Shown here one piece after another: positions 3,355 through 29,323 of a DNA stretch of 64,000 nt. Location: positions 5,946 through 69,945 of the forward strand of contig JANOAV010000044.1 of NCBI GenBank assembly GCA_031411295.1, given 5' to 3'. The position numbers and the translations under genes are program-made. Origin of the DNA: Verrucomicrobiales bacterium (lineage in GTDB: Bacteria; Verrucomicrobiota; Verrucomicrobiia; Verrucomicrobiales; V1-33). Position 1 is the first letter of the stretch, and each line of letters begins with the position of its first letter. Under the pieces are notes generated by a model that saw only the letters and a program-made list of their open reading frames with translations, was not told where the DNA came from and searched no databases.

Positions 3355-3415
3355 CGTCGCCAACACGCGAGGCGCGGCAGGGTAAAATCCCCCGCCGCGC
3401 CCACCGCAACACTCA

Positions 3416-3446: not shown

Positions 3447-3695
3447 GCATCGTGACCGCGCCGTGTGACATGAGTTCCCCTCGGAGGAGGGGCCTCCCGG
3501 CTGGTCGCTGGATCGAGACTTTCCCTTCGGGACTGCGTAGCAGTCTTGCTCATGAGAAACCGAGGCTGAAACCCCAGGTCCGACTGACATTCCAGAGGCC
3601 TATCCTCCCTCTGAATTCACGCCCACGAAAAAAACTTTCGCCAATCTCGACATAAATTTCAGCGGCCGGGGTAAAGACCTTTGACTACACTCATT

Positions 3696-6600
3696 ATGAA
3701 ATCGAATACACCACACCGCCGTCGTCGCCATCACCTCTGTCTGCTCATGCTTCCCGCCCTCTGGCAGATTGGCCAGCCGTTGCGGGCCAACAACACTTGG
3801 GACGGCGGTGGCGGCGCGACTTTTCTTTGGAGCAACAACGCGAACTGGGGTTTGGACACCGCGCCCGGTTTCGGCACGCTGATTTTCACCGGGGCCGTGG
3901 GCAACACCAACATCATGGATGCGAACTACTCCATGAATCAGCTCAACTGGAACGGCAGCAGCGCGTGGGTGCTGAACAACTCCGGCGGTTCGGTGCTCAG
4001 CCTCTTCGACAACGGCGGCACCCAGGCGAAGCTCGAAAGCCTCGGCACGGGCGGCGTCACCATCAATGCGCCGGTCACCTTTGCCGCGACGGCGGGGGCG
4101 GCGTGGGGGAAAATCAACGCCGTCAGCAGCAGCATGACCTTTGGCAGCGGCGGGACGCTGACCGTCAATGGCTCGGCGGTGGCGGGCATCCGTTTGTTTG
4201 GCGGCAGCGGGGCGATCGCGACGACTTTCAACAACACGGTCAGCGCGACCGGCAAGTATTTCGCCACCTCCGCCACCGGACAGACGGTGAACATCGGCGG
4301 CTCCTTCACGGCGGCGAATTTCTACCTGATGAACACCGGCACGCTGAACCTCAACACCGGCGGCAATCTGAACGGCACCGCCGTCCGCCTCGGCGGTGAC
4401 TTCGCCACCACGGGCACGCAGAATCTGGCGCTCGGCGCGACGTTCAACCTCACGCCCGCGCCGGGCGGCCTCACCTTTGCCGGAGTCGTGAATTCGGTCG
4501 CGAGCAATACCTCGGGAGCCTTGGTGGTGAATTCGCAGAACACCAGCGGCACGAACACGCTGAGCAATCAGATCGCGCTCGACTCGGCGTTGAAGATCAC
4601 GCAAGCGGCGGGCGGCACGCTCGCCATCACGCAGGTCAAAGGCGGCGATAACACCACGGGCACGGACCTCAAGGGCAACACGCTGACGTTCGCGCCCGCC
4701 GCCACGGGCGCGATCAATCACAGCGGCACGATCTATAACTCCACGGGCACTGGCTCCGTGACGCTCAACGGCGCGGGCACCCTGACGCTCTCCGGCGCGA
4801 ATACTTACTCCGGCGCGACGACTGTGAGCGCGGGAACGCTCAGTGCCGCGAACATCGTGGTTTCCGCCGGAAACAGCAATCTGGGCAACACCAGCAGCGC
4901 GGTGGTGCTGGGGGACGCCAGCAATCAGGGCACACTGTCCTATACGGGCGGTGCGGCCACCTATACCCGCGGGTTCACGATCAATGCCGGCGGCGGGCAG
5001 TTGACCAATGCCGGCTCCGGCACGCTGACGGTCGCCACCGGCGGGATTGCCGCCGGCGGAGCGTTCACGGTGGGCGGTGCTTCCGGCAAAGACATCACGA
5101 TCTCCAGCGCGATCAGCAGCACCGGCGGCCTCATCAAGACCGGAGCGGATACCTTGACCCTGTCTAACACGGGTAACAGCTTTAGCGGTGGAGTAACGCT
5201 GGGCGCGAGCGTGGGCACCATCATTGCCAACGCAATCGGCGGCACCAATGCCACCGGGTTGGGCACCGGGGCCGTCGCCATCGGCACCGGATCTACGGTC
5301 GAGCTTAAGACTACCTCCGCCTCCACAGCTATCGTCATTAACAACACTTTCACCGGCACCGGTCTCCTCAAGGTGACCTCCACGGGAGATTCGGGGGCTC
5401 CGAATAACAACCTCAATGGCATCAATGGCTTTAGCGGAACCGTTGAGCTGGCTAACGACGGAGGCGCCGGCAGAGGCAAGCTGGCCGGCACCATCAACGC
5501 CCCCAACGCCACGCTCCAGATTGACAGCGGCAGTCAGATTTACGTCGGGTTCTTTGGTGCGCAGACCTACAAGGACATCAAGGTCAGCGGCGCTGGCAAC
5601 GGGGAAAATCTCGGTGCCATCCGGTTCGATTCCAACAGGACTCTCACGGTGAGCGGAAGCGTGAGTTTGCTCGGAGATACCACCATCGCCGCGGGCGGGT
5701 TCACGGGTGATGGCACGCTGAGCGGCAAAATCACCAGCGGGGCCGCGGGCACCCAGACGCTGACTCTCGGCACGGCCTCCGCAGTCAACAACGTCACGCT
5801 GAACGGGGATATCGGCGGGGGCACAGGCACCATTGCTCTGACGAAAACAACGGCGAGCACCGTTATTCTCCTCGGCGCCAACACCTACACCGGCGCCACC
5901 CTCATCAGCGCAGGCACGCTGCAACTTGGCAACGGAGCCACGACGGGTTCGCTCTCGACGAGCAGTGCCATCACCAACAACGGGACGCTGGCCTTCAACC
6001 GCAGTAACACTGTGACCCAGGGCACGGACTTCGCCAGCGTCATCAGCGGCAGTGGTGCGGTGACGCAGATCGGCACCGGCACAACGATCTTCTCCGGGGC
6101 GAATACCTACACCGGCGCGACGACGATCAGCGCTGGCACCCTGAGCGTGGCCACCATCGGCAACGGCGGAGTCAGTGGGAACCTCGGCGCGGCCAGCAAT
6201 GCGGCCGCGAACCTCGTCTTCGACGGAGGCACGCTGCAATACACCGGAGCTACGGCCAGCACGGATCGCAACTTCACGGTCAATGCCGGCAAGACTGCGA
6301 CCTTCGACATCACCACCAACAACCTCACCGTGAGCGGTGCCTCCACCGCCAGCAACGGCGCGCTGACCAAGACCGGCACCGGCACGCTCACGCTCTCCGG
6401 TGCGAATACTTACACGGGCGCGACGACTGTCAGCCAGGGCACGCTGGTCTTGAACAATAATTCCGCCGCCGGGGGTTTCGCGGCGGGCACCATCACTCTG
6501 GGGAACGGGGCTACCGGCAACAGCAACGTCGAGTTGCAGTTTGGCAGCGGCGTCAGCGGATTCGATCTCACTCTCCCCAACGGCAGCGGCGTCCGGCGCG

Positions 6601-9600
6601 TGAACCCCATCACCGTGGCCAACACGGGAAGCTCGGGGACGGCAACCATCGCTTTTAGGCAGGATGCATCCGCCTACATTTACACGGATCTGACACTCAA
6701 TCGAGCCACCGTCCTTACGTCCGACAGCTCCTCCCGCCAGGCTCGTGGTTGGGTGGGGCGGATCACCGGTTCAGGTGCGGGTGTCGGCAACGATACCGTC
6801 ATCTACGATGCCGGCGTTAACAATTGGCTGGAATTCGCCCCGAAGAGCACGGGGGTCTCAGGAACAACCCCCGCGAACACGTTCTCAGGCAATCTCCGCG
6901 TCAAGAGCGGCAACCTGGAAGTCGCGAATGTTTCCTACCTCGGCGACGTCCCCGCCAATTCCAACTTGATGATCCCCGACGCCGCCAGCGTGACGGTGGA
7001 CGCAGGGGCCGCGTTGATATTCGTGTGGGGCGATGAGACGTTCGATGCGCTCAACGGCGGCGGCAGTATCGCGCGGAACACCGGCGATGGCCAAGGCATC
7101 CGCACGCTGACGATCGGGGCCAGCGGCGGTTCGGGAAACTTCAGCGGCGCGATCGCAGCCACCACCTTGGGAGCCGAAACGTTCCAGCCGGGAGTCAACA
7201 TTACCAAGACCGGCAGCGGCACGCAGATCTTCTCCGGCGCGAATACTTACACCGGCGCGACGACGGTGAGCGCGGGCGTTCTGCGCCTCAACGGAGCCAC
7301 CTCCCTCCCGGGCGGGATCGATACCACGGTGGGGGCGGGTGAAAGTGCGCTGACCCTGAATGGCGGCGTGCTCGGCCTCGGTGCGGGCAATTTCACCCGC
7401 AACCTCGGCACCGGAGCCGGACAAGTGCAGATCAACGCAGGCGGCGGTGGCTTCGCGGCTTACACCGCGGACCGGCTCGTGAATCTCGGCGGCGCGACCG
7501 CAACGGTCACCTGGGCGAGCGGCAGCTTCGTGCCCACGGGCAGCAACCTCATCCTCGGCGCGGCCGATGCCACGCACACGGTCACTTTCCAAAACCCGAT
7601 CAACTTCAACGCCGCGACGCGCACCGTGCAGGTGGACAATGGTGCCGCCACCGTGGATGCGATCCTCTCCGGCGCCCTGAGCAACGGCGGCCTGACGAAG
7701 ACCGGCGAAGGCTCACTGACGCTCTCCGGTGCGAACACCTACACCGGCGCAACGACCATCAGTGCGGGCACGCTGAGCGTGGGCACGATTGGTAACGGTG
7801 GCGTGGCCAGCGGGAATCTCGGCTCGGCCTCCAGCGCGGCCGCGAACCTCGTCTTCGACGTCGGCACGCTGCAATACACCGGAGCTACGGCCAGCACGGA
7901 TCGCAACTTCACGATCAATGCCGGCAAGACGGCGACCTTCGACATCGCGACCGCCGCTACCAACCTCACCGTCAGCGGCGCCTCCACCGCCACGACCGGC
8001 GCTCTGACCAAGATCGGCGCGGGCACGCTTACCCTTTCCGGGTTCAATACTTTCACTGGAGCGGTGCAGGTGAATGCGGAGACGCTGAATATCTTCAACG
8101 ATGCCAACCTCGGGACGGGTATCACCGTCACCCTCGCGGGCGGCACGCTGCTATCCTCGTCCACCTGGTTGTCCCACCCGCTCGCCATCAGCACTGCCAG
8201 CACCATCGACACGGCCTATGGCTTCACCACGACCGATAATGCCGCGCTCACTGGCTCCGGCACGCTGACGAAAACGGGCGGCGGAACCTTTTCCCTCATC
8301 TCCGGCTCGGGCAATACTTTCAGCGGTAACATCACTCTCGCCACCAATGGCGGCACCCTTCAGATCGGCGGCACGCCGGCCAGCAATCCGGCGGGCGGGG
8401 CCACGCTCGGCAGCCTGACTTCAGCCAATACCCTCACGGTCAATCGCGGCGCCACCTTCAACATCGAGGACAATGCCAGCTTTACTTCATTTACCGACCG
8501 TCTTGGCTCGGCGGGTAACCGTCCGGCGGTGTCGTTGAATGGCGGCACCTTGAGCCTCAATGGTGTCAACTTCGCCGCCGTCACGACCCAGACCCTCGGC
8601 GCGCTGACCCTGGCCTCCGGTGCTTCCACGATCAATGTCACCCGCAACACCTCGGGCACGCCCGAGCTGATCTTCTCCAGCCTGAGCAAGACTTCGGGTG
8701 CCTTTGCCAACTACACCGGCACCGCGCTCGGCAACGGCACGAATGACGGACGGATTCTCTTCACCAGCGCGCCCACGCTCATCGGGGGCGGCGGCGCGGC
8801 GAACAGTCCGACCATCAGCATCCTGCCCGGCGCGCGATCGGGCAACGATCTGGTCACCTATGACGCGGTGAATGGCATCCGGCCTTTGGTCCTGGCGGAA
8901 TACAACGCGGTGGCCGGGAATAACATCACCGGCGCGGGTGCCACGCAGAATGTGAACATCTCCAACGCCACTCCGACGGCGTTCACCGCGCTTTCGGGAG
9001 CGAAGACCATCAACTCTCTCGTCATCACCGCCCCCGCTGTTTCGACTTGGGCGATGGGAAATACGCTGACACTCACCAGCGGCCAGTTCATTCACAGCGC
9101 GGCATCCGCACACACGCTCAACATCAGCAGCGGCACCCTCACCGCCGGCACCGGGGCCGTGGGCACGGTGGACCTCGACCTGTCGATCCTGAACAGCACG
9201 GTGACTCTCGGAGCCAATGTGAATAACAACGCCTCGACGGTCGTGGGCCTGGTCAAGAATGGGGCCGGCAGCCTCTCGCTGAATAACACAGCGGACAGCA
9301 CCTATTCCGGCAGCACCTTCGTCAACGAGGGAACGCTCACCACCGGCATCACGGCCAGCCGTCGTTATCTGGGCACGGGAGCGGTGACGGTCAACGCGGG
9401 TGGAATCCTGAGTCTGGGAGCGATCGGGGCCACATCTTTCAGCGGGAGCATTGGCTCACCGACCTACACGGCGAGGACCGGCGGGCAAATCCAGATCGCG
9501 AATGCCGTTCCCGCGGTCAATGAGTTTTTCAAGATCGAATCCGGCGCGGCCATCATCAATGCGGGCACCACCAGCGCGGGCGGACTGGATTTGAATACGA

Positions 9601-11855
9601 ACCTCAACGCCGCCGCGGGCGCGGTGCTGGCGGAGACGAGTGCCGGCTTTAACGCCGCCATCAAAAAAGGCGGCGTCGCCATCCAGACCGCCCTGACCAC
9701 GCCCACCTATCATTTTGGGCTGGCGTCCTCCATTAACGAAAACGTCACCGTGGGAACGGGGACGCCTTGGCTGGGGCTGAGCAGTCTCCCCGGCGTCGGG
9801 GTCAGCGGCGTAGTATACGGCGGGGCGACGGCGAATAACACCCTCACGGCCAACAGTGATTTCACTCTCCAAGGCATGACCCCTTCCGGCTCTGGAGGAA
9901 TCGGCCAGCCTAACTACTTATACCTCGGCTTCGGTGCAAGTGCGACGAACATCACCAAGATCGCCACACCCAATGGCAATGTGAACGCCAACATCGTGGG
10001 GGGCGTATTTCTGTGGAACGACAACAGCCAGTATGGCTCGGCCGGGAACAAGGTAACCTTCCAAGTCTCCTCCGGGGCCTCGCTAGGTGCTGCGACTGCG
10101 AATGCGCAAGGCGTCGTCGCTGGAGCGGCGACCGCCCCGGCCAGCATCGTGGTGCAAAATGGCGGCACGGTTTTCCCAAGCGATCCCAACGCCTTCAATG
10201 GCAGCGTGACGATCCAGCCCGGCGGCACATTCAGCCATGGCCAATCCACGCTCACCGGAACGGGAACCATCACCCACTCGAATGGCTCGATCCTCTCTTT
10301 GTCAAGCGCGACGGCGGTCAGCGGCGCTACCCAGTCCCTCGGCACCCTCCCCGGCACCATCGTGCGCATGTATAACTACTATGGGTATACGCCCGGAACG
10401 AGCACGCTGGGAGTCACGCAATTCGACAGCGGCCTGAACGATGCCGCCGTCTATAACGTCTTGAGTTTCGGAGCCATGGGGAATGCGGCGTCGGCGACCG
10501 ATTCCTTGTTCACGCTCAGTGCCAATGGTGGCATCGGGGGCGTGCTCACCGCTGCGCCGAACAGCGGCCTGAGTGCGGCGACGGGCGTCGTTGCGGTCGG
10601 CCCCGGAGGAGGGACGTTCGCCGGAGCCAACGGCAGTTCCTTCTATATGAATGAGAACTTCGCCCTCGGAGCCAACACGCTGACCATCGGTTCAGCGCAA
10701 TCCTACGATGGCTACCAGCGACTGGGCGGAGTTTATCTCTACTCCACTGCCGGCACCAACACCGGCAGCGCCGGGAGCGTCATCTCGGTCATCAATGGAG
10801 CCTACCTCCAGTTCGGCGATGCCGGGCAGATCCCCGACGCCACCCGCCTGACCGTCAATAGCGGCGGCTATGTGTATCTGAATGGCTCCGAAACCGTGGA
10901 GTCGCTGACCGGTGCGGGCTCCATCTACAACTACTACGGCCCCGCCACCCTGACGCTCGCTCCCACCACCACCGACGCCAACTTCTCCGGCACCCTCTAC
11001 TCCTCGACCCCGGCCAACCTCGCCCTGACCAAGACCGGCACCGGCACGCAGACCCTCTCCGGCGCGAACACTTATACTGGCGCGACCCTCATTCAAGGGG
11101 GGACACTGTTGCTGAGCGGAGCGGGAGCGCTGGCGGACACTACTGATGTTAGTTTGACCGCCAGTTCCTCGTTCAGCATTGCGGGCATCAACGCCGCCAG
11201 TGAAACGGTGGGCTCGCTGTCCGGCGTGAGTGGCTCCTCGGTGGATCTGGGAGGCAAAAATCTGACGGTCAGTAACAATGCGAATTTCACGTTTTCCGGA
11301 GTTGCCTCAGGTAGTGGCGGCAGTCTGACCAAAGCAGGCACGGGGATCATGACCCTGAGCGGAAACAACACTTACAGCGGAGGCACGAATCTGACCGGTG
11401 GCACCCTGCTGATGGGAGCCAGCAATGTGCTGCCGAATACCGCGACCCTGAACCTCAGCTCCGGCACCAAGCTGGACACTGGCGGCTTCAGCGACACCAC
11501 GGGCGCCCTCAGTGTCACCGGCCCTGCGGTGATGGATCTGGGAACTAGTGCTGGTTCCCAGCTAACATTTAGTAACGTGGGAACCTGGAGCAGTCTCCTC
11601 AGTGTCTGGAATTACACGGGTGCCCCGTGGACGCCGGGGACGGATAAGCTGATCTTTACCAGCGGAAGCAACACCATCAACCTCGCCAACGTCCAGTTCT
11701 TCAGCGACAACGGGCTGACGCAGATCGGCACCGGCGGCGGCGGGCTTATCGGCAATGAACTGGTGCCGGTGCCGGAGCCAGGAGCCGTGTTGGGTGGCGG
11801 GGTGCTGCTGGCCTTGGTAGGCTGGCGGGAACGGCGGCGGCGGGCCACTGTTTAA
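3696..11855 (+). CDS. Giant (2,719 aa) autotransporter-associated beta-strand-repeat (PATR) surface protein with a C-terminal PEP-CTERM anchor
   Basis: ATG at 3696, in frame inside ORF 3681..11855. Signal peptide MKSNTPHRRRRHHLCLLMLPALW. N-terminal W.GGG...W....NW motif. Dozens of copies of G(T/A)LTLSGANTY(T/S)GATT(V/I)SAGTL. C-terminus is VPVPEPGAVLGGGVLLALVGWRERRRR. Confidence 0.9.
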   Translation: MKSNTPHRRRRHHLCLLMLPALWQIGQPLRANNTWDGGGGATFLWSNNANWGLDTAPGFGTLIFTGAVGNTNIMDANYSMNQLNWNGSSAWVLNNSGGSVLSLFDNGGTQAKLESLGTGGVTINAPVTFAATAGAAWGKINAVSSSMTFGSGGTLTVNGSAVAGIRLFGGSGAIATTFNNTVSATGKYFATSATGQTVNIGGSFTAANFYLMNTGTLNLNTGGNLNGTAVRLGGDFATTGTQNLALGATFNLTPAPGGLTFAGVVNSVASNTSGALVVNSQNTSGTNTLSNQIALDSALKITQAAGGTLAITQVKGGDNTTGTDLKGNTLTFAPAATGAINHSGTIYNSTGTGSVTLNGAGTLTLSGANTYSGATTVSAGTLSAANIVVSAGNSNLGNTSSAVVLGDASNQGTLSYTGGAATYTRGFTINAGGGQLTNAGSGTLTVATGGIAAGGAFTVGGASGKDITISSAISSTGGLIKTGADTLTLSNTGNSFSGGVTLGASVGTIIANAIGGTNATGLGTGAVAIGTGSTVELKTTSASTAIVINNTFTGTGLLKVTSTGDSGAPNNNLNGINGFSGTVELANDGGAGRGKLAGTINAPNATLQIDSGSQIYVGFFGAQTYKDIKVSGAGNGENLGAIRFDSNRTLTVSGSVSLLGDTTIAAGGFTGDGTLSGKITSGAAGTQTLTLGTASAVNNVTLNGDIGGGTGTIALTKTTASTVILLGANTYTGATLISAGTLQLGNGATTGSLSTSSAITNNGTLAFNRSNTVTQGTDFASVISGSGAVTQIGTGTTIFSGANTYTGATTISAGTLSVATIGNGGVSGNLGAASNAAANLVFDGGTLQYTGATASTDRNFTVNAGKTATFDITTNNLTVSGASTASNGALTKTGTGTLTLSGANTYTGATTVSQGTLVLNNNSAAGGFAAGTITLGNGATGNSNVELQFGSGVSGFDLTLPNGSGVRRVNPITVANTGSSGTATIAFRQDASAYIYTDLTLNRATVLTSDSSSRQARGWVGRITGSGAGVGNDTVIYDAGVNNWLEFAPKSTGVSGTTPANTFSGNLRVKSGNLEVANVSYLGDVPANSNLMIPDAASVTVDAGAALIFVWGDETFDALNGGGSIARNTGDGQGIRTLTIGASGGSGNFSGAIAATTLGAETFQPGVNITKTGSGTQIFSGANTYTGATTVSAGVLRLNGATSLPGGIDTTVGAGESALTLNGGVLGLGAGNFTRNLGTGAGQVQINAGGGGFAAYTADRLVNLGGATATVTWASGSFVPTGSNLILGAADATHTVTFQNPINFNAATRTVQVDNGAATVDAILSGALSNGGLTKTGEGSLTLSGANTYTGATTISAGTLSVGTIGNGGVASGNLGSASSAAANLVFDVGTLQYTGATASTDRNFTINAGKTATFDIATAATNLTVSGASTATTGALTKIGAGTLTLSGFNTFTGAVQVNAETLNIFNDANLGTGITVTLAGGTLLSSSTWLSHPLAISTASTIDTAYGFTTTDNAALTGSGTLTKTGGGTFSLISGSGNTFSGNITLATNGGTLQIGGTPASNPAGGATLGSLTSANTLTVNRGATFNIEDNASFTSFTDRLGSAGNRPAVSLNGGTLSLNGVNFAAVTTQTLGALTLASGASTINVTRNTSGTPELIFSSLSKTSGAFANYTGTALGNGTNDGRILFTSAPTLIGGGGAANSPTISILPGARSGNDLVTYDAVNGIRPLVLAEYNAVAGNNITGAGATQNVNISNATPTAFTALSGAKTINSLVITAPAVSTWAMGNTLTLTSGQFIHSAASAHTLNISSGTLTAGTGAVGTVDLDLSILNSTVTLGANVNNNASTVVGLVKNGAGSLSLNNTADSTYSGSTFVNEGTLTTGITASRRYLGTGAVTVNAGGILSLGAIGATSFSGSIGSPTYTARTGGQIQIANAVPAVNEFFKIESGAAIINAGTTSAGGLDLNTNLNAAAGAVLAETSAGFNAAIKKGGVAIQTALTTPTYHFGLASSINENVTVGTGTPWLGLSSLPGVGVSGVVYGGATANNTLTANSDFTLQGMTPSGSGGIGQPNYLYLGFGASATNITKIATPNGNVNANIVGGVFLWNDNSQYGSAGNKVTFQVSSGASLGAATANAQGVVAGAATAPASIVVQNGGTVFPSDPNAFNGSVTIQPGGTFSHGQSTLTGTGTITHSNGSILSLSSATAVSGATQSLGTLPGTIVRMYNYYGYTPGTSTLGVTQFDSGLNDAAVYNVLSFGAMGNAASATDSLFTLSANGGIGGVLTAAPNSGLSAATGVVAVGPGGGTFAGANGSSFYMNENFALGANTLTIGSAQSYDGYQRLGGVYLYSTAGTNTGSAGSVISVINGAYLQFGDAGQIPDATRLTVNSGGYVYLNGSETVESLTGAGSIYNYYGPATLTLAPTTTDANFSGTLYSSTPANLALTKTGTGTQTLSGANTYTGATLIQGGTLLLSGAGALADTTDVSLTASSSFSIAGINAASETVGSLSGVSGSSVDLGGKNLTVSNNANFTFSGVASGSGGSLTKAGTGIMTLSGNNTYSGGTNLTGGTLLMGASNVLPNTATLNLSSGTKLDTGGFSDTTGALSVTGPAVMDLGTSAGSQLTFSNVGTWSSLLSVWNYTGAPWTPGTDKLIFTSGSNTINLANVQFFSDNGLTQIGTGGGGLIGNELVPVPEPGAVLGGGVLLALVGWRERRRRATV
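6095..6420 (+). repeat. Internal duplication within the PATR gene, copy 1
   Basis: A block of about 325 bp (…NLVFDGGTLQYTGATASTDRNFTVNAGKTATFDI…) recurs at 7725-8050. It contains runs of more than 50 identical nucleotides (ggcacgctgcaatacaccggagctacggccagcacggatcgcaacttcacg). Confidence 0.8.
7725..8050 (+). repeat. Internal duplication within the PATR gene, copy 2
   Basis: Partner of the 6095-6420 block. Same amino-acid block, with few substitutions. Confidence 0.8.
11760..11852 (+). other. PEP-CTERM sorting signal (predicted exosortase recognition region)
   Basis: LVPVPEPGAVLGGGVLLALVGWRERRRRATV: a VPEP motif, a hydrophobic helix and an Arg cluster at the extreme C-terminus. Confidence 0.85.
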
Positions 11856-12007
11856 ATCATTTCCAGTTTAAATTGAGTGAGCAGCCCAGCGGGCAGTTCC
11901 ACATTCTTCCTGACGTCGGCCGCCACGGTTTAGCTTGGATGTCTCCAAGCTTCCGTCAGAAATGCAAAGGCTTGACAGTGGGTGGAAATTTCGCCACTGA
12001 GTGGAGT

Positions 12008-12453: not shown

Positions 12454-12969
12454 ATGATGCTATCCCTCATCGCTGCGGTCTCGGAGGATGGGTTCATCGG
12501 CCAGGATGGTAAAATCCCGTGGTCCCTGCCGCGCGATGTAGCTCATTTCCGGCAGTATTGTGCCGGGAAATGGTTGTTGCTAGGGAGGCGAACGTATGAG
12601 GAAATGAGCGGTTGGTTCCGGGATCATCATCCGCTGATTCTGACGCGCAATAAATCGTTCCAGCCGAGTGTGGGAACCCGGGTGGCGAGCGTGGGGGAGG
12701 CTCTGGAGTTGGCTCGGAAGCAGTCGGTGCCGGAGTTAGTGGTGCTTGGGGGTGGGGAAATTTTCGCGCTGGCAATGCCGTTGGCACAACGGTTGATTTT
12801 GACCACGGTGCATACTAAGGTGGGCCGCGGCACGCGATTTCCAGACTGGGTGGCCCCGGACTGGCGCTGTTTGCAGCAGGAAACTTTCCTGCCAGACGAC
12901 CAGCACGCGTTTCGGCATACCATCGCCACCTATCAACGAATCCCCCCTATCACCCCAGACCAAACATGA
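12454..12969 (+). CDS. folA: Dihydrofolate reductase
   Basis: LSLIAAVSEDGFIGQDGKIPWSLPRDVAHFRQYCAGKWLLLGRRTYEEM matches the DHFR N-terminal signature. The size of about 170 aa fits. Confidence 0.9.
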   Translation: MMLSLIAAVSEDGFIGQDGKIPWSLPRDVAHFRQYCAGKWLLLGRRTYEEMSGWFRDHHPLILTRNKSFQPSVGTRVASVGEALELARKQSVPELVVLGGGEIFALAMPLAQRLILTTVHTKVGRGTRFPDWVAPDWRCLQQETFLPDDQHAFRHTIATYQRIPPITPDQT

Positions 12970-13463
12970 AACGCCGCACCTTCCTAACCACCACTTCGCT
13001 TCTCGCAACGAGCCTTGCCGCTCAAGCGGCAGATCCCGCCAAGCCTGGCAAGCCCACCTCTGGCAAGGTGGTGAAGACCGAGGAAGAATGGAAGCAACAG
13101 CTCACCGAGTTGCAATTCAAAGTGACTCGCAAGCATGGCACCGAACCCGCTTTCAAAAATGAATACGCCGACAATCACGCCAAGGGCATCTACACCTGCG
13201 TGTGCTGTAGCCAGGAGCTTTATAGTTCCGAAGCCAAGTTTGAAAGCGGCACCGGTTGGCCCAGTTTCTTTCAACCGATCGCGCCCGAAAAAATCGGCAC
13301 CACGGTGGACAAGAAACTGTTCTACGAGCGCACCGAAGTTCATTGTTCGCGTTGTGATGCCCACTTGGGGCATGTCTTCAAGGATGCTCCTGCCACGCCC
13401 ACGGGCATGCGCTACTGCATGAATTCGGCAGCGATGAAATTTATCCCAGCCAAGGCGAAATAG
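12966..13463 (+). CDS. msrB: Peptide-methionine (R)-S-oxide reductase MsrB with a twin-arginine signal peptide
   Basis: ATGA start/stop overlap with folA. N-terminus MKRRTFLTTTSLLATSLAAQA is Tat-like. Two CxxC pairs (CVCC, CSRC). GTGWPSFF and RYCMNS MsrB motifs. Confidence 0.9.
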   Translation: MKRRTFLTTTSLLATSLAAQAADPAKPGKPTSGKVVKTEEEWKQQLTELQFKVTRKHGTEPAFKNEYADNHAKGIYTCVCCSQELYSSEAKFESGTGWPSFFQPIAPEKIGTTVDKKLFYERTEVHCSRCDAHLGHVFKDAPATPTGMRYCMNSAAMKFIPAKAK

Positions 13464-13475
13464 CGTTTCGCCTGC

Positions 13476-14339
13476 ATGGAGTTGCATTGTCGCCAGCGGA
13501 TCATCGCGTTTCCCCGTCGCCCTTTGGTGATGGGGATTGTCAATATCAACGACGACTCCTTTTGCGGAGACGGCACGCTGGATATTTCCGCAGCCATGGA
13601 GCAGGCCCAGCGCATGGTGGCGGATGGGGCGGATATCATTGATGTGGGCGCTGAGAGTGCCCGAACGAATCGGGGGCCCATCTCCGTAGCCGATGAAATT
13701 GCCCGCTTGGAACCATTCATCACAGCCTTCCATGCGGCCGAGTGGTCTGCTCCGGCGGATGCAGCGCAGGTCTATCCACCGTTGCTTTCCATTAATACCT
13801 GGCGACCTGAAGTAGCGGCTGCGCTGTTACCACTCGGAGTAGATATCCTCAATGATCTGAGCGCCCTGCCAGATCAGGTGCCTGCGCAACTTTGCCGGGA
13901 ACATCAGACGGCTTTGTTGATTATGCATACCGTGGGGCAGCCGAAAGTGGCTCACACGCACGTGGGGTATGAGGATATCTGGGCGACGTTGGTGGCCTTT
14001 TTCTCGGAGAAATTGGAGTTAGCTAGGTCGGCTGGCTTGACGAAATCGCAGGTGATACTCGATCCTGGCATCGATTTCGCGAAGCAACGCGATGATAATT
14101 TACGTATTTATGCCGGACTCCAACAGTTGCAGCAATTCGACGTGCCCGTGTTGCTGCCGGTTTCCCGTAAAAGTGTGATTGGTCACGTGCTGGGTATCTC
14201 CGCCCCCACCGAGCGGGATGCCGGCACCGTAGCCTGCATCCAAATGGGCCTTGCCAAGGGAGCCCACATTTTCCGGGTTCATAACGTGGCGGCAGCGTAT
14301 CAGTCGATTAAGCTGCTGGATTGGTTGGCGCGGGCTTGA
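13476..14339 (+). CDS. folP: Dihydropteroate synthase
   Basis: LVMGIVNINDDSFCGDG and DGADIIDVGAESARTN are pterin-binding DHPS motifs. About 287 aa. Confidence 0.88.
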   Translation: MELHCRQRIIAFPRRPLVMGIVNINDDSFCGDGTLDISAAMEQAQRMVADGADIIDVGAESARTNRGPISVADEIARLEPFITAFHAAEWSAPADAAQVYPPLLSINTWRPEVAAALLPLGVDILNDLSALPDQVPAQLCREHQTALLIMHTVGQPKVAHTHVGYEDIWATLVAFFSEKLELARSAGLTKSQVILDPGIDFAKQRDDNLRIYAGLQQLQQFDVPVLLPVSRKSVIGHVLGISAPTERDAGTVACIQMGLAKGAHIFRVHNVAAAYQSIKLLDWLARA

Positions 14340-14382: not shown

Positions 14383-15096
14383 ATGAAAAAATCTGCGCAT
14401 CTGCTCTGGGGATTGATGCTGGTGCTAATAGCCGGGCTGGTGGGGTGGGCCGTTCGTTCCCGTGGGCCCGCAGTTCCGACTGGCAGCGTGACTCGGGCGG
14501 AAGTGCTGGCGCTGGCGGAGCGTTATGTGCAGCATGTATGGCGGGGCGGTCCGGAGCACATTTTCCATGGCCTAGATCCACAAGGCGTGCGGGTGGATAC
14601 TCCGGATGCGGCCTTCCAACCTCAGAACGGTCAGGGTTGGTGGCGGACGGACGTGGAAAATGTCGGCATACCCTACAAGTGGGGAGGATTCGATTTACCC
14701 GAAGAATTCGCAACCGGACTGAGAGCCGGGCGCTATGCGGGGGACTGCGGCAGTGCGGAGAAACGCCGTTTGCTCGATGATGCGGTCAGTTCGTCCGCCG
14801 TGGGGATCGATTGCAGCGGTTTTGTTTCGCGTTGCTGGAAGTTGCCGCGGAGTTATTCCACGCGGGAGTTGCCGCAGCTGTGCGATCCCATCACGGATCT
14901 GACGAAATTAGAGCCGGGCGATATTTTCAATCGTCACAATGCCCACGTGATGCTCTTTGCAGGATGGGTGGACGCAGACCATACGCTGATCAGCGTTTAT
15001 GAGGCAAACGAGAAAGTCAGCCGCACCGAGCACGCAGTGGCGAAGCTGTTGCAGGATGGTTTCAGTGCCTGGCGTTACCGAGAGATGCGGGATTAG
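14383..15096 (+). CDS. NlpC/P60 (C40)-like cysteine peptidase, membrane-anchored
   Basis: Start chosen at MKKSAHLLWGLMLVLIAGLVGW (signal/anchor). IDCSGFVSRCW carries the catalytic-Cys motif. A downstream HVMLFAGW His motif is present. Confidence 0.6.
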   Translation: MKKSAHLLWGLMLVLIAGLVGWAVRSRGPAVPTGSVTRAEVLALAERYVQHVWRGGPEHIFHGLDPQGVRVDTPDAAFQPQNGQGWWRTDVENVGIPYKWGGFDLPEEFATGLRAGRYAGDCGSAEKRRLLDDAVSSSAVGIDCSGFVSRCWKLPRSYSTRELPQLCDPITDLTKLEPGDIFNRHNAHVMLFAGWVDADHTLISVYEANEKVSRTEHAVAKLLQDGFSAWRYREMRD

Positions 15097-16034
15097 GTTA
15101 GATTGGGCGCACTCCCACTCTCCCGCAATTCCCGCAGCGTGGTGCTGAAGGCACTCAAGTCGGAAATGATGCGGGCGTTCATCGCGATCAAGGTCGATTC
15201 GTAGTAGGCTAGATTAGGTCCGCCTACGAAGACTTTGACCGTTGCTGGCAGCAACTTGGCCAACTGCTGCAGGTCCTCCGCCAGAGCTGGGTCATCCAGT
15301 GGGTAAATGATGCTCAGTGCCAGAACGGAAGCGTTATTTCTCATGCAAGCATGGGCTAGTTCTTCAGACGGCAGACTGGGTCCCAGATAAATCACATCCC
15401 ATCCCGCCTTGCGGGCCAGGGCGGCGGAAATGACGGCACCCAACTCATGGAGTTGCCCCCGCGGCGTGCCCACCACCAGTCTGGGGGCAGAGGTGGAAGG
15501 AATCATCGACTGCGCCCGCTGCGCCAAGTAATCGCGGATCGCAGCGCTGGCAAAATGCTCCTGGCTTGCCGTCAAGTCACCAGCGGCCCACATTTCCCCG
15601 ATCTTCCTCAGAAAACGCAGCAACATTCGTTCCAAGACCCCGCTGGCCCCCAATTGCAGCATCGCTTCATCCAAGCAGCGCACCAAATCCTTGCTGGAGA
15701 AATTCCGGGTTGCCTTCAGCGCTTGGTCAATCAATGCATCCTCGTCGAGCAGAGGCTCGGTGGAGGTCGGAGCAGCCACCACCAAACCGCCGCCTTCGAG
15801 CAATCGCGTCAATTCAGGATCGCTCAGCGGCACCAAATTACTGATCGAGAAGCCCCGCTGCGTCAATTGACTCAACAGGGCGAGCCGGGCGACATCCTCC
15901 TCTGAATACATCCGTCGGGCACTCGCAGTGCGGGCAGGCGTGACTGCGCCATAGCGTTTTTCCCAGATTCGAATCACATGCGCACTGAGTCCAGTGCGCA
16001 TGCTAACTGCTTTGATGTTGTGCAAATAATCCAT
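15093..16034 (-). CDS. carH: MerR-family, B12-dependent light-sensing transcriptional regulator (CarH/LitR type)
   Basis: The N-terminal MerR HTH (IKAVSMRTGLSAHVIRIWEKRYG) favours the start at 16034. W-x9-E-H signature (MWAAGDLTASQEH). B12-binding Rossmann domain with an x-H-x-x-G motif (GQLHELGAVI). Longer alternative starts exist at 16097 and 16109. Confidence 0.8.
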   Translation of the reverse strand: MDYLHNIKAVSMRTGLSAHVIRIWEKRYGAVTPARTASARRMYSEEDVARLALLSQLTQRGFSISNLVPLSDPELTRLLEGGGLVVAAPTSTEPLLDEDALIDQALKATRNFSSKDLVRCLDEAMLQLGASGVLERMLLRFLRKIGEMWAAGDLTASQEHFASAAIRDYLAQRAQSMIPSTSAPRLVVGTPRGQLHELGAVISAALARKAGWDVIYLGPSLPSEELAHACMRNNASVLALSIIYPLDDPALAEDLQQLAKLLPATVKVFVGGPNLAYYESTLIAMNARIISDLSAFSTTLRELRESGSAPNLT

Positions 16035-16109
16035 TGGATGGTAGTATCTCGGGAGCCCCGCACCCGAAGGTGCTACGTCTAAATCACGATGTGGCATCCG
16101 TAAATCCAA

Positions 16110-16131
16110 AAATTCGACAAAAATTAGACAG
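16110..16131. promoter_or_regulatory. Candidate CarH operator: two tandem 11-bp direct repeats
   Basis: AAATTCGACAA and AAATTAGACAG are adjacent. Both fit nAnnTnnACAn, the CarH direct-repeat consensus as I recall it. A weaker CCA-containing copy lies just upstream. The site is in the divergent carH/desaturase intergenic region. Confidence 0.4.
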
Positions 16132-16235
16132 AGGTAGTCCGTTTGGGTTGCAAATCCGCTCTTGCTACCTGTCGTAAAGTAACTTAAAGGTCATGTAAGC
16201 CGCCTTTGCTTCGGCGGCCCTCGTTTCCTTTTTCC

Positions 16236-17351
16236 ATGATTACCGAAACCCTCGAATCTCCCACCGCTGTCGCTGCACAAGCCTCCGCTCCATCCCCAAC
16301 TACATCATCCGATCCCTTGAAAAACGGGGAATGGAAGAAAATCGTCTCCAAGTTCACCGTCCCCAGCCGAGGACGTGCCACGTGGCAATTGGTCAATACG
16401 CTGGTGCCATTCATCGCCTGCTGGGTGGCCATGTATTTCACCGTGGAAAAGTCGCTCCTCTTGACGGCCTTGTTCGTGCTCCTCGCAGGCGCGCTGTCGG
16501 TGCGGGTGTTCATCATTTTCCACGACTGTGGCCATGGCTCCTTCTTCAAATCGCGGAAGGTAAATGACGTGGTCGGATTCATCTGTGGCGTCTTTACCTT
16601 CACCCCCTACCTCCATTGGCGCTGGGAGCACGCGCTGCACCATGCTTCCTCTGGCGATCTGGATCGTCGTGGGGTGGGAGACATCTGGACGATGACCGTT
16701 GATGAGTATCTCAGCGCTTCGCGCGGCAAACGTCTGGCCTACCGCTTCATGCGTAATCCCATCATCCTGTTCGGCTTGGGCCCGCTTTATTTGTTCCTCG
16801 TGCAAATGCGCATTCCATCCAAGAAAGCCAGTCGGCGGGACCGCAATTCCGTCTGGTATATGAATATTGCCATTGCGCTCTTCATGATCCTCATGGGCAC
16901 CCTCTTCGGTTGGAAACATTATCTGCTGCTCCAAGTGGGCGTTACCCTGATTGCGGGAATCTCCGGCGTCTGGATGTTCTATGTGCAACATCAATACGAG
17001 GACGTTTACTGGGAGCACAATGACAACTGGGACTTCGCCACCGCCGCCCTCCACGGTAGTTCCTTCTACAAACTGCCCCGCATCCTCCAGTGGTTCACTG
17101 GCAACATCGGCTTCCACCACATTCACCACCTTAGCTCCCGGATCCCGAATTACCATCTGGAGCGCTGCCATAAGTCCCACCCACTTTTCAGCACCGTGGA
17201 GCCTCTCACCTTCTGGAAGAGCCTGAAATCTCTGACCTTCCGCCTGTTCGACGAATCCCAACGCAAGCTCGTGAGCTTCCGTCACATTCGCCATCTGCCG
17301 CGGAAACCCAAGTCTCAGGACACCACTGGCGGCACCCCCGCCAGCGCCTAG
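16236..17351 (+). CDS. Membrane fatty-acid desaturase (DesA-like, three His boxes)
   Basis: His boxes HDCGH, HALHH and HHIHH. Hydrophobic segments lie between the boxes. ATG at 16236, in frame within ORF 16206..17351. Confidence 0.88.
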   Translation: MITETLESPTAVAAQASAPSPTTSSDPLKNGEWKKIVSKFTVPSRGRATWQLVNTLVPFIACWVAMYFTVEKSLLLTALFVLLAGALSVRVFIIFHDCGHGSFFKSRKVNDVVGFICGVFTFTPYLHWRWEHALHHASSGDLDRRGVGDIWTMTVDEYLSASRGKRLAYRFMRNPIILFGLGPLYLFLVQMRIPSKKASRRDRNSVWYMNIAIALFMILMGTLFGWKHYLLLQVGVTLIAGISGVWMFYVQHQYEDVYWEHNDNWDFATAALHGSSFYKLPRILQWFTGNIGFHHIHHLSSRIPNYHLERCHKSHPLFSTVEPLTFWKSLKSLTFRLFDESQRKLVSFRHIRHLPRKPKSQDTTGGTPASA

Positions 17352-17354
17352 TTC

Positions 17355-18194
17355 ATGGCCATCGTTTCCCTGGGGCGGCGGAATTTACTGCCTATCATTA
17401 GGCAGTCTGTTTACGGCACCCACCTCGATGGCGGTAAGCTCGGGGAGATTCTTCTGCTGGCTCGCGAGTATGTGGACCCCGAGGAAACGTCGCTGGACGT
17501 GTTCGTTTACCTGAACTCCGAGGATCGGCTCACCGCCACCCGGGCCACTCCGTTGGCCATGGTGGGGGAATTCGCTTCTTTAAAAGTCATTGAATTCCAT
17601 CCCCAACTCGGAGCGTTTCTCGACTGGGGATTGAGCAAGGACTTGCTCCTGCCGATGCGGGAACAAGTCGGCCGTGTCCGTCCCGGCCAGCGGGTCGTCG
17701 TTTATATTAAAGTGGACGAACGCTCCCAGCGCATCAACGCCACCATGAAGCTGCATCCGTATTTGAATCGCATGGATTCCAATTACAGCGTGGGTCAGGA
17801 AGTAAACCTGCTCATCGCGAGTCGCACGGAATTAGGCTTCAACGCGCTGCTGCCCTCGGGCCATATCGGGCTGCTCTACCACAGCGAAACCAATACCCCG
17901 CTGGAAATTGGCGACAACATCATCGGCTACATCCGCACCGTTCGCGAGGATGGCAAAATCGATCTCGGTCTCGATCTAGCAGGCGCGCACCGCCTCCCGG
18001 AACTCGCTCAGCGCATCCTCAGCACGCTCAAGGCGGCCGGAGGCTCCCTGCCCTACGGAGACGACAGTTCCCCGCAGGACATCAGAGACTTCTTCTCCAT
18101 GAGCAAGAAGGCCTTCAAGCAAGCCCTGGGCACGCTGTATAAACAACGATTAGTGAAGATCGAGCCGGATGGGATCTCGCTGGCGAAAGATTAG
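17355..18194 (+). CDS. S1 RNA-binding-domain protein of the CvfB/YitL family
   Basis: GEFASLKVIEFHPQLGAFLDWGLSKDLLLP and later GYIRTVREDGKIDL resemble the repeated S1-like domains of YitL/CvfB. The gene starts 3 nt after the desaturase stop. Confidence 0.6.
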   Translation: MAIVSLGRRNLLPIIRQSVYGTHLDGGKLGEILLLAREYVDPEETSLDVFVYLNSEDRLTATRATPLAMVGEFASLKVIEFHPQLGAFLDWGLSKDLLLPMREQVGRVRPGQRVVVYIKVDERSQRINATMKLHPYLNRMDSNYSVGQEVNLLIASRTELGFNALLPSGHIGLLYHSETNTPLEIGDNIIGYIRTVREDGKIDLGLDLAGAHRLPELAQRILSTLKAAGGSLPYGDDSSPQDIRDFFSMSKKAFKQALGTLYKQRLVKIEPDGISLAKD

Positions 18195-18331
18195 TTTGTA
18201 ACGTGGCTTCGAAGACACAATTGATTTTGCCGATTTTGCCCTCCATCATTTAGAAGTTCCAGGCGACTGGAGCGAACAGTTTGAAAATCTTATCGTTTTG
18301 CTGGCCATAGATTACCCAGAGGTTTGCAGTT

Positions 18332-18700
18332 ATGAACCTCACTGAACTGAAATCGTCTGTCCGTGCTTTGCTACTTCTGATTGCGGTGGTCACGGTGCTG
18401 GTTGCATGGATCATTCCGGCAGGTCTTCATGTGGTGACCGCATGGAACGGGCAACAGTCACCCATGGTGAATCCTCTCAGCATAGAATCCAGCGCGGATT
18501 TCCACCAAGAGCCTGACCCTTTTTCCGATGACCCTAATGTAGTCCGACTGATCAACCCACAAAATCCGGTCCAGATTAGGACCAAGTTCGTTCAAGTTGG
18601 TTCCGGAACCGAAGAGCTCAACTTTGAAGAGTTGATCCAAGCATTTCAACCAGCCACTGATGCCAGTTTTCCCCACAGCCAAAATGCCCATGATGAATGA
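18332..18700 (+). CDS. Hypothetical single-pass membrane protein
   Basis: N-terminal TM segment LLLLIAVVTVLVAWIIPAGL. No recognisable family. Confidence 0.4.
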   Translation: MNLTELKSSVRALLLLIAVVTVLVAWIIPAGLHVVTAWNGQQSPMVNPLSIESSADFHQEPDPFSDDPNVVRLINPQNPVQIRTKFVQVGSGTEELNFEELIQAFQPATDASFPHSQNAHDE

Positions 18701-27140: not shown

Positions 27141-28619
27141 TTGGTCTCACAAATCTACCTCGGGACGCAAGCTTTTACTGGCGAGACTGGCATGGGCCGC
27201 TATCCTCACCCTATGGATGGTCAATTCTTAACCTGCACCCGACAAACCGGGCTCACTGTTGCTTCCTACCGGATGGACCACGCGGCGGCAGCGGCTAATG
27301 GTGCGGTAGCGGTGCCAAGATTAAAGCAAAGCTACGTTTGGGGCTTGGATGTGAGCGGGACGTATCAGGGCGCGGGTGGAGCGGGTGGCTTGTTGTCCGA
27401 GACGGAGTGGAGGCAGGAGATGCAGACGGACCCCAATACCAGCATCGTGACGGAGGTGACCACTGCGTCCACGTTCATGCCTGCTTATGATGGCAATGGT
27501 AATGTGATGGCGTTGGTGGACACGGTGGGTGACATCAGTGCCACTTACGAATACGATCCCTTCGGCCGCCCGATCCGCGCCACGGGCTCCATGGCCCAGA
27601 CTAACCCCTTCCGCTTCAGCACCAAGTTCACCGATGATGAGACCGGCTTGGTGTATTACGGCTACCGGTATTACGATGCCGCGCAGGGAAGGTGGCTGGG
27701 GCGGGATCCTATCGGAGAGCGCGGGGGACCGAATTTGTTTGGAATGTGTTGGAACAATCTAATGCTGTTTATCGACGACACAGGCTTACAAGCAACCATT
27801 GCGCCCCCTCGTCAAATTACTCCTAAGCCTTGGCCGCCAGGAGTCAATCCCAGGCCAGGGTTCGGCCCGGATGGCCCAGGGAGTGGAAGCACACCTGGCA
27901 GGCCGCGTCCAAGGCCAGGCTCCGGCAGACCTCGTCCAGGTGGAGGAGGAATCGGCGGGGCCGCTGACCTGATTGAAAGATATCAAGTGATAAAGATTGT
28001 TGAGGAAGACCCGTTAGACCCGATGAATTTACCGCTCCTAGAAATCTATGGTGGAGCTCCCATCCAGCCCACGCCTGTAGAGCCTGTTGAACCAGTCGAA
28101 GAACCTGCGCCGGAACCGGGTAGTGATATCAATAAAACGCTTACAGAGGTTCAGCGTGAATCAACTAAGGACGGATGCTGTTTGATTTGGTATAACCATC
28201 AAAAAGGAGGGTCTACAGTCCACAATGATTACGCGGCCTACGTAAGTGAGTCCATGAATAGATTCTTAGGTGGGCCACTCGGGAGCAACCTTCGCTATGA
28301 GGTGGTGGTGGTTCCTAAGCTAAAAGATGTAAAGGAGAAGGGGCTGATTCCAACGCGCTACGATGGAGGAGCGAGATTTCCAGATGCCCAATGGGTCTTC
28401 GAAGCTAAGACAGGGCATGGATGGCTGGGAACTGATCCGGATAAGCCTGAGCCTTGGTGGACATTTCAATACCCCAGGCTCCTCGCCAAATCGAAAGACC
28501 AATTGAAGGTGGCAGAATCATGCAAGCTAACATTTTGGATTGCTTTTAAACACGATTTCGCTAGGAAAAGCTGGGAGCGATTGGTGGGCGATACGCATGG
28601 CAGGGTTTTTCAGCCATGA
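27141..28619 (+). CDS. RHS repeat-associated core protein with a variable C-terminal toxin domain (cassette 1), possibly a PD-(D/E)xK nuclease
   Basis: WGLDVSGTYQGAGGAGGLL, YDGNGNV, YEYDPFGRPI, FRFSTKFTDDETGLVYYGYRYYDAAQGRWLGRDPIGERGGPNLF…FIDDTGL form the RHS core ending in DxxGL. A Pro/Gly-rich linker and a ~200-aa C-terminal domain follow, with ...FPDAQWVFEAKTG (D…E-x-K). The start is uncertain: TTG at 27141, first ATG at 27192. Only about 130 aa precede the core. Confidence 0.75.
   Translation: MVSQIYLGTQAFTGETGMGRYPHPMDGQFLTCTRQTGLTVASYRMDHAAAAANGAVAVPRLKQSYVWGLDVSGTYQGAGGAGGLLSETEWRQEMQTDPNTSIVTEVTTASTFMPAYDGNGNVMALVDTVGDISATYEYDPFGRPIRATGSMAQTNPFRFSTKFTDDETGLVYYGYRYYDAAQGRWLGRDPIGERGGPNLFGMCWNNLMLFIDDTGLQATIAPPRQITPKPWPPGVNPRPGFGPDGPGSGSTPGRPRPRPGSGRPRPGGGGIGGAADLIERYQVIKIVEEDPLDPMNLPLLEIYGGAPIQPTPVEPVEPVEEPAPEPGSDINKTLTEVQRESTKDGCCLIWYNHQKGGSTVHNDYAAYVSESMNRFLGGPLGSNLRYEVVVVPKLKDVKEKGLIPTRYDGGARFPDAQWVFEAKTGHGWLGTDPDKPEPWWTFQYPRLLAKSKDQLKVAESCKLTFWIAFKHDFARKSWERLVGDTHGRVFQP
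27388..27643 (+). repeat. Conserved RHS-core DNA block, copy 1
   Basis: About 255 bp, nearly identical to 29750-30004 with only a scattering of mismatches by eye. Confidence 0.9.
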
Positions 28620-29307: not shown

Positions 29308-29323
29308 ATCAGTATAGTGGAGA

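Follow-up and report, generated by a model that had tools for sequence, protein, structure and literature searches.

A candidate B12-dependent photoreceptor-repressor and its putative operator beside a Des-type fatty-acid desaturase gene in Verrucomicrobiota

We analysed a stretch of 64,000 nucleotides from a Verrucomicrobiales bacterium (GenBank assembly GCA_031411295.1, contig JANOAV010000044.1, positions 5,946 to 69,945 of the forward strand), referred to here as the window, in which a CarH/LitR-type regulator gene and a membrane fatty-acid desaturase gene diverge from a shared control region. The regulator gene (15093-16034, minus strand) encodes a protein of 313 amino acids (aa) that comprises a MerR winged helix, a four-helix bundle carrying a Wx9EH motif, and a Rossmann-type B12-binding domain. 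Across an intergenic region of 201 bp (16035-16235) lies the gene for a 371-aa membrane acyl-lipid desaturase with three histidine boxes, of the Bacillus Des (Delta5) type by Pfam and NCBIfam (16236-17351, plus strand), followed by a gene for a 279-aa CvfB-like RNA-binding protein with S1 and winged-helix domains (17355-18194, plus strand; Pfam S1_2 and CvfB_WH). Between the divergent genes is a pair of tandem 11-bp direct repeats, DR1 and DR2, separated by 75 nt from the regulator ATG (16034) and by 104 nt from that of the desaturase (16236). A candidate adenosylcobalamin (AdoCbl) photoreceptor, its putative operator, and a possible lipid-modifying target thus share one control region.

The regulator is a clear relative of known B12 photoreceptors. 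Its start was placed at the ATG; a TTG at 16109, which would give 338 aa, was rejected because the 25-codon extension is unconserved, because the related locus L082 has an in-frame stop there, and because homologues are 308-320 aa long. An independent gene call on an identical contig also gives 313 aa. Pfam finds MerR_1 (E = 4e-16), B12-binding_2, and B12-binding, and the closest solved relative is full-length Thermus thermophilus CarH (TtCarH; 5c8d, E = 2e-28), with both domains aligning and W131, E141, H142, and H177 of TtCarH falling on W149, E159, H160, and H196. An AF2 model built on 38 homologues reached a pLDDT of 88.6, and its top Foldseek matches are all TtCarH, with E = 2e-18 over the full length and, for the B12 domain, a TM score of about 0.8 at about 3 Å.

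Published criteria that separate light-sensing CarH from CarA-type and enzymatic B12 binders are an RxWERRY recognition helix, the Wx9EH motif, and the pattern D/ExHxxG-x41-SxT/V-x22-27-GG (PMC9304148). The recognition helix reads RIWEKRY (residues 22-28) in the window regulator, with no variation at R, W, E, R, and Y among the 38 homologues (RxWE[RK]RY). A first-pass annotation of the window had assigned the protein to the AdoCbl photoreceptors from its MerR helix-turn-helix and Wx9EH motif and had held that a lack of conservation of the motif in orthologues would count against its proposal. The assignment holds up well: the motif spans W149-x9-E159-H160 (MWAAGDLTASQEH), and its W, E, and H are invariant across the homologues. 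The cobalamin-ligand motif QLHELG named in the same annotation is also present (G193-Q-L-H196-E-L-G), although it has the form QxHxxG, with Gln in place of the classic Asp or Glu. Over the whole Rossmann pattern, QLHELG-x41-SII-x27-GG, the spacing, His, Gly, Ser, and GG match, with Gln for Asp/Glu and Ile/Val for Thr/Val as the departures. A proline stands at the position of Gly160 of TtCarH, a replacement noted as common (PMC9304148). A further published light-response signature for B12 domains consists of GxxW, EH, GxxH, and GxxxP (PMC11796333), and all four of these SignatureFinder elements are found in the regulator, as G146xxW149, E159H160, G193xxH196, and G218xxxP222. The GxxW, EH, GxxH, G218, Sx[VI], and GG positions are invariant in the homologues, and P222 is kept in 37 of 38. 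These comparisons support the regulator as a candidate class-I-type AdoCbl photoreceptor of the CarH/LitR family.

The repeats in the intergenic region have the form of a CarH operator. DR1 (16110-16120, plus strand; AAATTCGACAA, core TCGACA) fits both nAnnTnnACAn and the published nnnnTnnACAn (PMC9304148), and DR2 (16121-16131, plus strand; AAATTAGACAG, core TAGACA) matches the repeat with a family-type core. The pair reads away from the regulator and toward the desaturase. It is the sole tandem match to two copies of nAnnTnnACAn on both strands of the 64-kb window, with 0.03 expected from shuffled sequence. A weight matrix derived from the sites of distant relatives only gives it 26.9 bits, inside the training range of 22-34, while the next best match in the window scores 16.2 bits and the 95th percentile of shuffle maxima is 19.2. 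This next best match (11848-11869, minus strand; AAACTGGAAAT GATTTAAACAG) lies between a giant open reading frame (ORF) and a 186-aa ORF; it was rejected as a second operator because its score is within the range of shuffled sequence, and it is probably a chance occurrence. No third repeat adjoins DR1 and DR2, the flanking 11-mers (16099-16109 and 16132-16142) being degenerate and without a TnnACA match, and no TnnACA match occurs where a second pair would lie after an 8-nt gap (16140-16161). A TAGTCC at a 10-nt offset near the repeats is only weakly conserved. One inverted repeat, GACAGAGGTAG / CTACCTGTC (16127-16174), is unconserved in L082, L084, and L085 and was treated as chance; the repeat-finding program reported no inverted repeats.

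Pairs of this type recur throughout the regulator family. When genomes were scanned with the family alignment, 80 loci were recovered, almost all of them from Verrucomicrobiota and at identities of no more than 46%; closer relatives, L081-L085 among them, were added by exact-protein look-ups, and the repeat count covers 89 loci. A strict pair is found within 300 nt upstream of the regulator gene at 29 of the 89 loci, where shuffles give an expectation of 0.08. This position also accounts for 33 of the 36 strict pairs in the 904 kb of locus DNA. When the literature consensus (two copies of nnnnTnnACAn) is used, 111 pairs point away from the regulator gene and 5 along it, and the window pair obeys the majority direction. 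The family repeat consensus is AAnnTAGACAa. Because the window pair is unique there and the same type of pair lies upstream of regulator genes across Verrucomicrobiota, it is, judged by these comparisons, almost certainly the operator of the regulator.

The relatives also reveal how these sites are laid out. A proximal pair (35 cases) lies no more than 20 nt, and usually 4-11 nt, from the regulator start codon, and TTGACA never occurs in it. The other operator is distal and directed at the divergent gene. In 32 of 76 cases TTGACA forms its second repeat, and usually another pair follows after 8 nt, so that four repeats span -35 to +1. Examples of this two-plus-two layout are L049 (5827-5878), L070 (about 2167-2218), and L073 (5809-5860), in which DR2 is TTGACA, a perfect -35, DR3-DR4 follow after the 8-nt gap, and a -10-like CATAAT or CATATT lies between DR3 and DR4. 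The separate two-repeat operator abutting the regulator start codon in such loci suggests near-leaderless regulator mRNAs. Beyond 6 of the 35 proximal pairs, all at distant loci, T[TG]GCAA is found at 11-13 nt. In the window, the palindromic, -35-like hexamer TTGCAA (16148-16153) lies 16 nt beyond DR2 and is a candidate for the -35 element of the regulator promoter; it is kept in L081 and L082, not in L084 or L085.

Among the closest relatives, the control region is conserved in patches. Most of the intergenic DNA is 35-40% identical between the window and L084 or L085, whereas the repeat block is identical at 17-18 of 22 positions and a GTAAATC segment at 8 of 9. The TnnACA cores of both repeats are invariant in L081, L082, L084, and L085, which answers the first-pass annotation's call for an alignment of orthologous intergenic regions. 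Its view of the repeats at 16110-16131 as a CarH-type operator accordingly gains from two sides, their enrichment upstream of the regulator family and a footprint conserved in five desaturase-linked contigs. Better conserved than the repeats is a 14-nt block, AAATCCGCTCTTGC (16152-16165, plus strand), with 14 of 14 positions identical in L081, L084, and L085 and 13 of 14 in L082. Its role may be that of a promoter or discriminator element, or a second factor might bind there; it was rejected as an ancestral desaturase-upstream element, as it is not found upstream of desaturase relatives.

The desaturase promoter may be read in two ways, and its manual assignment is ambiguous. Candidate promoter A, TAGACA-19-GCAAAT, would place DR2 at -35; the TAGACA core of DR2 matches five of the six positions of a -35 hexamer reading toward the desaturase, and the reverse complement of DR2 contains TAATTT. 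Candidate promoter B (16162-16190, plus strand) combines TTGCTA (16162-16167), a 17-nt spacer, and TAAAGG (16185-16190), and would place the repeats at about -66 to -87. By eye, its hexamers and a spacing of 16-17 nt are kept in five aligned intergenic regions, for example as TTGCCA-16-TAAACT in L084. Further down, the desaturase leader contains a GC-rich hairpin, GCCGCC-N8-GGCGGC (16199-16219, plus strand), and then a T/C-rich tract up to the ATG. Folding of 16150-16250 gives a minimum free energy of -23.7 kcal/mol (z = -2.8), and the hairpin can be extended by AAAGG/CCUUU pairing just before the AUG (16186-16232). It is kept in L081, weakened in L082, and absent in L084 and L085; attenuator and RNA thermometer are possible roles. 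The window matched no Rfam family in a scan, and hence no cobalamin riboswitch.

The product of the divergent gene is assigned to the fatty-acid desaturases by several lines of comparison. It matches Pfam FA_desaturase (E = 6e-31), its histidine boxes are HDCGH at 96, HWRWEHALHH at 127-136 (HALHH at 132), and HHIHH at 294, and its hydrophobic segments cover residues 52-99 and 175-250. The NCBIfam model of Delta(5) desaturase DesA (NF052548) matches over 319 of 328 profile positions with 432 bits and E = 2e-129, against a cutoff of 500 bits; the only other NCBIfam match is GntB (E = 7e-10). The protein appears to be a close relative of the Bacillus Delta5 Des, a kinship that does not assure its regiospecificity. 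The membrane His-box fold and the Pfam FA_desaturase superfamily also include carotenoid enzymes of the CrtR and CrtW types, so the gene might conceivably encode a carotenoid-modifying di-iron enzyme, related to the CrtW ketolase or CrtR hydroxylase, in an ordinary pairing of CarH with a carotenoid gene. The nearly full-length match to the Delta5 Des model, the lack of any match to carotenoid ketolase or hydroxylase models in NCBIfam, and the lack of crt genes in the window when the neighbour proteins of relatives are used as queries make this extremely improbable, and the annotated contrast between a three-His-box desaturase and a carotenoid gene stands. The ATG of the CvfB-like gene lies 3 nt past the desaturase stop, no terminator-like site was found between the two, and the gene pair is also adjacent in L084; as first proposed, the two genes are apparently co-transcribed.

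Genes found opposite the regulator in its relatives provide a further line of evidence. Among 58 distant loci, the divergent neighbour is an RpoS/RpoD-like sigma factor (regions 1.2-4) at 18, a CrtI-family phytoene desaturase at 10 (TIGR02734, 536 bits against a cutoff of 238), a fasciclin protein at 5, and SelB at 4. Intergenic repeat pairs are present at 9 of the 10 crtI loci and 13 of the 18 sigma loci. Because crtI neighbours carry these pairs, the regulator family is tied to the canonical light-induced target. At two of the crtI loci, L021 and L040, a single pair (TAGACA/TAGACA) lies 79-92 nt away from the regulator start codon. The sigma-factor loci are L009, L017, L018, L023, L025, L026, L033, L034, L042, L047, L051, L057, L060, L063, L066, L071, L076, and L080, with the divergent sigma-factor gene at about 4.7-5.9 kb in most; for these we would predict a light-induced sigma cascade similar to that of Streptomyces LitR-LitS, with a sigma factor outside the extracytoplasmic function (ECF) class. 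In the window, tblastn with the relatives' neighbour proteins detects no crtI, sigma factor, or other family-neighbour gene. The suggestion in the first-pass annotation that crt genes might lie under the same operator is thus answered in two parts: the 64-kb window has neither a crt homologue nor a second operator, and the wider family has crtI beside repeat pairs.

The desaturase partner itself is restricted to a narrow clade of five distinct contigs. L081 has a regulator 93% identical to that of the window, the operator, and the first codons of the desaturase, its contig ending about 30 codons into that gene. In L082/L083 the regulator is 80% and the desaturase 90% identical, and in L084, which lies in assembly GCA_031409635.1, the figures are 67% and 88%, with cvfB adjacent; L085 has a regulator of 67% identity and a desaturase fragment. 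The operator is conserved in all of these. This desaturase lies within 6 kb of the regulator at none of the 80 distant regulator loci, and on this distribution the pairing of regulator and desaturase is a lineage-specific rearrangement. A desaturase operon in the place that crtI or a sigma-factor gene has in relatives suggests that the output of the photoreceptor was rewired in this lineage.

With domain architecture, motifs, operator identity, and the family-wide association of operator and regulator established by sequence comparison, we lean toward the explanation that the protein is a class-I-type CarH/LitR photoreceptor-repressor acting on the divergent control region. In the dark, AdoCbl-bound regulator would oligomerise, with the upper ligand capped by W149, E159, and H160 and the lower ligand provided by H196, and the MerR-type heads (RIWEKRY) of the oligomer would bind the two tandem repeats. 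Light below about 530 nm would cleave the Co-C bond, the oligomer would lose its affinity for DNA, and transcription would be released. That the regulator binds AdoCbl and responds to light seems to us highly likely. The repeats would overlap the -10/+1 region of the regulator's own promoter, with TTGCAA as -35, so that autorepression is also likely, if slightly less so. Co-repression of the desaturase-cvfB operon, by which light would raise membrane lipid unsaturation and the level of the S1 RNA-binding protein, we regard as an even bet. The broader proposal, in which a clade of non-phototrophic Verrucomicrobiota rewired a B12 photoreceptor from control of carotenoid or sigma-factor genes to direct light control of a Des-type desaturase and a CvfB-like protein, through a subfamily that lacks the bis-His light state, is offered tentatively and falls somewhat short of even odds.

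Several observations weigh against this explanation, beginning with the regulator itself. Against the NCBIfam CarH equivalog (NF052513), the regulator scores 124 bits (E = 7e-36, profile positions 8-268 of 274), well under the cutoff of 400, and it is best described as a clear CarH homologue outside the curated equivalog. The residue equivalent to His132 of TtCarH is Ala150, and the family has A, R, or E at this position, with His in 1 of 38. Glu175 of TtCarH is replaced by Gln in the regulator and all 38 homologues, and the Arg176-Asp201 salt bridge of the TtCarH dimer by Leu/Ser; because of these last two replacements, oligomerisation and photochemistry may differ from those of TtCarH. TtCarH needs His132 for light-driven disassembly, its H132A variant mostly remaining tetrameric after illumination (PMC10442372). 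The light-state chemistry of the regulator therefore probably differs from that of Thermus CarH, and one could argue that the protein binds B12 and has no light switch in vivo, reporting instead cobalamin availability or the redox or oxygen state, or acting constitutively like the B12-independent CarA. However, the W, E, and H of Wx9EH are invariant here, whereas CarA-type proteins lack the Trp (PMC9304148); the four SignatureFinder elements are in place, and in CtMerR, a validated photoreceptor, Arg stands in place of His132 (PMC11796333). A His132-type residue is therefore not universal among validated photoreceptors, and its loss bears on mechanism, not on family membership. Together with the repeated pairing of the family with crtI, a classic light-induced target, this makes a regulator blind to light improbable.

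A second set of points concerns the link from the operator to the desaturase. In its TCGACA and TAGACA cores, and in the TTGCAA that follows 16 nt past them, the window pair is most like the autoregulatory operators found close to the regulator gene elsewhere, and no TTGACA repeat or second pair after an 8-nt gap, making four in all, faces the desaturase in the window, unlike most target operators of relatives. Promoter B begins 31 nt downstream of the repeats, where a bound repressor might not occlude RNA polymerase, and a sigma-70 consensus scan of 15800-18500 found no promoter, in a phylum whose promoter rules are not established. Conserved synteny is confined to close relatives, whose regulators are 67-93% identical, and common descent alone could account for it. 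In 80 metagenome loci with relatives of the desaturase (44-65% identity), the CarH-type regulator is missing and no repeat pair precedes the desaturase gene; the genes upstream are heterogeneous, including 6 LytTR regulators. These points, along with the conserved 14-mer between the repeats and the desaturase and the many family regulators that adjoin unrelated genes (mutS, selB, rplS), would suit a purely autoregulatory repeat pair, with desaturase and cvfB transcribed from their own promoter (TTGCTA-17-TAAAGG) under some other control, such as temperature through the hairpin or a factor at the 14-mer, and with the adjacency a neutral rearrangement.

Other evidence points the opposite way. 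Regulator and desaturase share the single 201-bp control region in every sampled member of the clade, and that region is conserved, with repeats oriented toward the desaturase. Only 8 nt would separate the two candidate -35 elements, and a CarH oligomer whose footprint extends over pseudo-repeats would reach them; published CarH footprints cover 33-55 bp (PMC9304148). A single TAGACA pair also serves the crtI loci L021 and L040, and the desaturase occupies the position held by crtI or a sigma factor in relatives. We thus consider autoregulation alone unlikely, though it deserves to be taken seriously, and retain joint control of both genes as the preferred reading. The light-controlled desaturation proposed in the first-pass annotation is accordingly upheld in part: synteny and operator are conserved in the narrow clade and the gene sits in the crtI/sigma position, but the single pair of autoregulatory type, the separate candidate promoter, and the lack of a His132 equivalent count against it.

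Other features of the window place the locus in context. Its proteins include PSCyt/PSD 'planctomycete cytochrome' and DUF1552 proteins, several sulfatases, and a giant PATR protein, and the close homologues all come from Verrucomicrobiota; the content fits the Planctomycetes-Verrucomicrobia-Chlamydiae (PVC) type of bacterium that the first-pass annotation had supposed. Compared with L081 and L082, the window has an inserted 237-aa ORF with no Pfam match (14383-15096, plus strand) between folP and the regulator gene, and the stop of this ORF overlaps the regulator stop by 4 nt; its GIDCSGFV motif is, we presume, reminiscent of NlpC/P60 cysteine peptidases. The cluster of folA (DHFR), msrB (SelR), and folP (pterin-binding DHPS) at 12454-14339 (plus strand) converges on the regulator and abuts it directly in L081 and L082. 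No operator was seen upstream of this cluster; the folate/pterin genes folE, folX, and folM belong to Pseudomonas LitR light regulons (PMC9758184). Two giant surface-protein genes occupy 25-11855 (plus strand), one encoding a 1109-aa PKD/cadherin/Big_9 protein and the other a 2724-aa protein with at least 10 passenger-associated transport (PATR) repeats. A run of ORFs at 27141-31564, including an RHS-repeat protein, has a third-position GC of 0.35-0.57 against about 0.65 elsewhere and may be a toxin/immunity cassette gained by horizontal transfer. At a distance of about 30 kb from the desaturase is a fatty-acid beta-oxidation cluster (45974-52855, plus strand) with an AMP-binding ligase, a FadB-like enoyl-CoA hydratase/3-hydroxyacyl-CoA dehydrogenase, and an acyl-CoA dehydrogenase, at which no operator-like site was found.

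CarH/LitR photoreceptors have been studied almost only as carotenoid switches and optogenetic parts, and this locus offers a testable alternative output in a non-phototroph. If the proposal is correct, the physiological outputs of CarH-family photoreceptors would newly include membrane unsaturation. The regulator also belongs to a large uncharacterised Verrucomicrobial subfamily with an invariant Gln-x-His B12 motif, no upper-ligand His, and a readable two-operator layout whose target operator often drives an RpoS/RpoD-like sigma factor. Such traits are relevant to the current debate on the need for His132 ligation in CarH activation, and they help in predicting light regulons in the Verrucomicrobiota abundant in water and soil.

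The nearest known system is T. thermophilus CarH (LitR; PDB 5C8A/5C8D/5C8E/5C8F), which has the same three modules as the window regulator, Wx9EH, a His lower ligand, GxxxP, and an RxWERRY-type helix. The two proteins share about 28% identity and differ in the Ala for His132, the Gln for Glu175, and the Leu/Ser for Arg176-Asp201. Thermus CarH is autoregulated, and tandem 11-bp nnnnTnnACAn repeats overlie promoter elements in its operator (PMC9304148); three repeats lie there beside crtB and other carotenoid genes, compared with two clear repeats and a lipid desaturase neighbour in the window. CarH operators, built of direct repeats and pseudo-direct repeats, are known to be plastic: Thermus has three repeats, Bacillus megaterium has four, and in Cystobacter a CarH dimer requires a tandem of two (PMC9304148). 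The two-plus-two target operators of the Verrucomicrobial family resemble the four-repeat design of B. megaterium. CarH of B. megaterium and of the myxobacteria Cystobacter and Sorangium targets crt genes, whereas the window has one two-repeat site.

Other members of the LitR group offer precedents for different outputs. Streptomyces LitR adjoins the gene for the sigma factor LitS (PMC11519972), which is an ECF sigma factor, in contrast to the RpoS/RpoD-like neighbours, with regions 1.2-4, in Verrucomicrobiota. The B12-independent class II LitR of Pseudomonas controls light-induced ufaM, encoding the lipid-modifying furan fatty-acid synthase UfaM (PMC9758184), and class II/III LitR regulons in Pseudomonas and Burkholderia include light-induced genes beyond carotenoids, such as photolyase and folE (PMC9758184, PMC11519972). 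Unlike the window regulator, these class II/III proteins lack a B12 Rossmann domain. The literature searched gave no His-box desaturase among the targets of these LitR systems. In Myxococcus, the His-box membrane desaturase CarF/PEDS1 is tied to a bacterial light response (PMC8156234) and belongs to a different family from the window desaturase. CarF/PEDS1 aside, our literature searches gave no report of a Verrucomicrobial CarH, nor of a His-box fatty-acid desaturase under CarH control, and the window may encode a CarH-family regulator with a new output. The closest curated family to the window desaturase is represented by Bacillus subtilis Des, a Delta5 enzyme with three His boxes that is associated with DesK-DesR. 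Des is cold-induced through this two-component system, which senses membrane thickness. The window desaturase, by contrast, has no adjacent kinase or response regulator, and its sole linked regulator is a homologue of a B12 photoreceptor.

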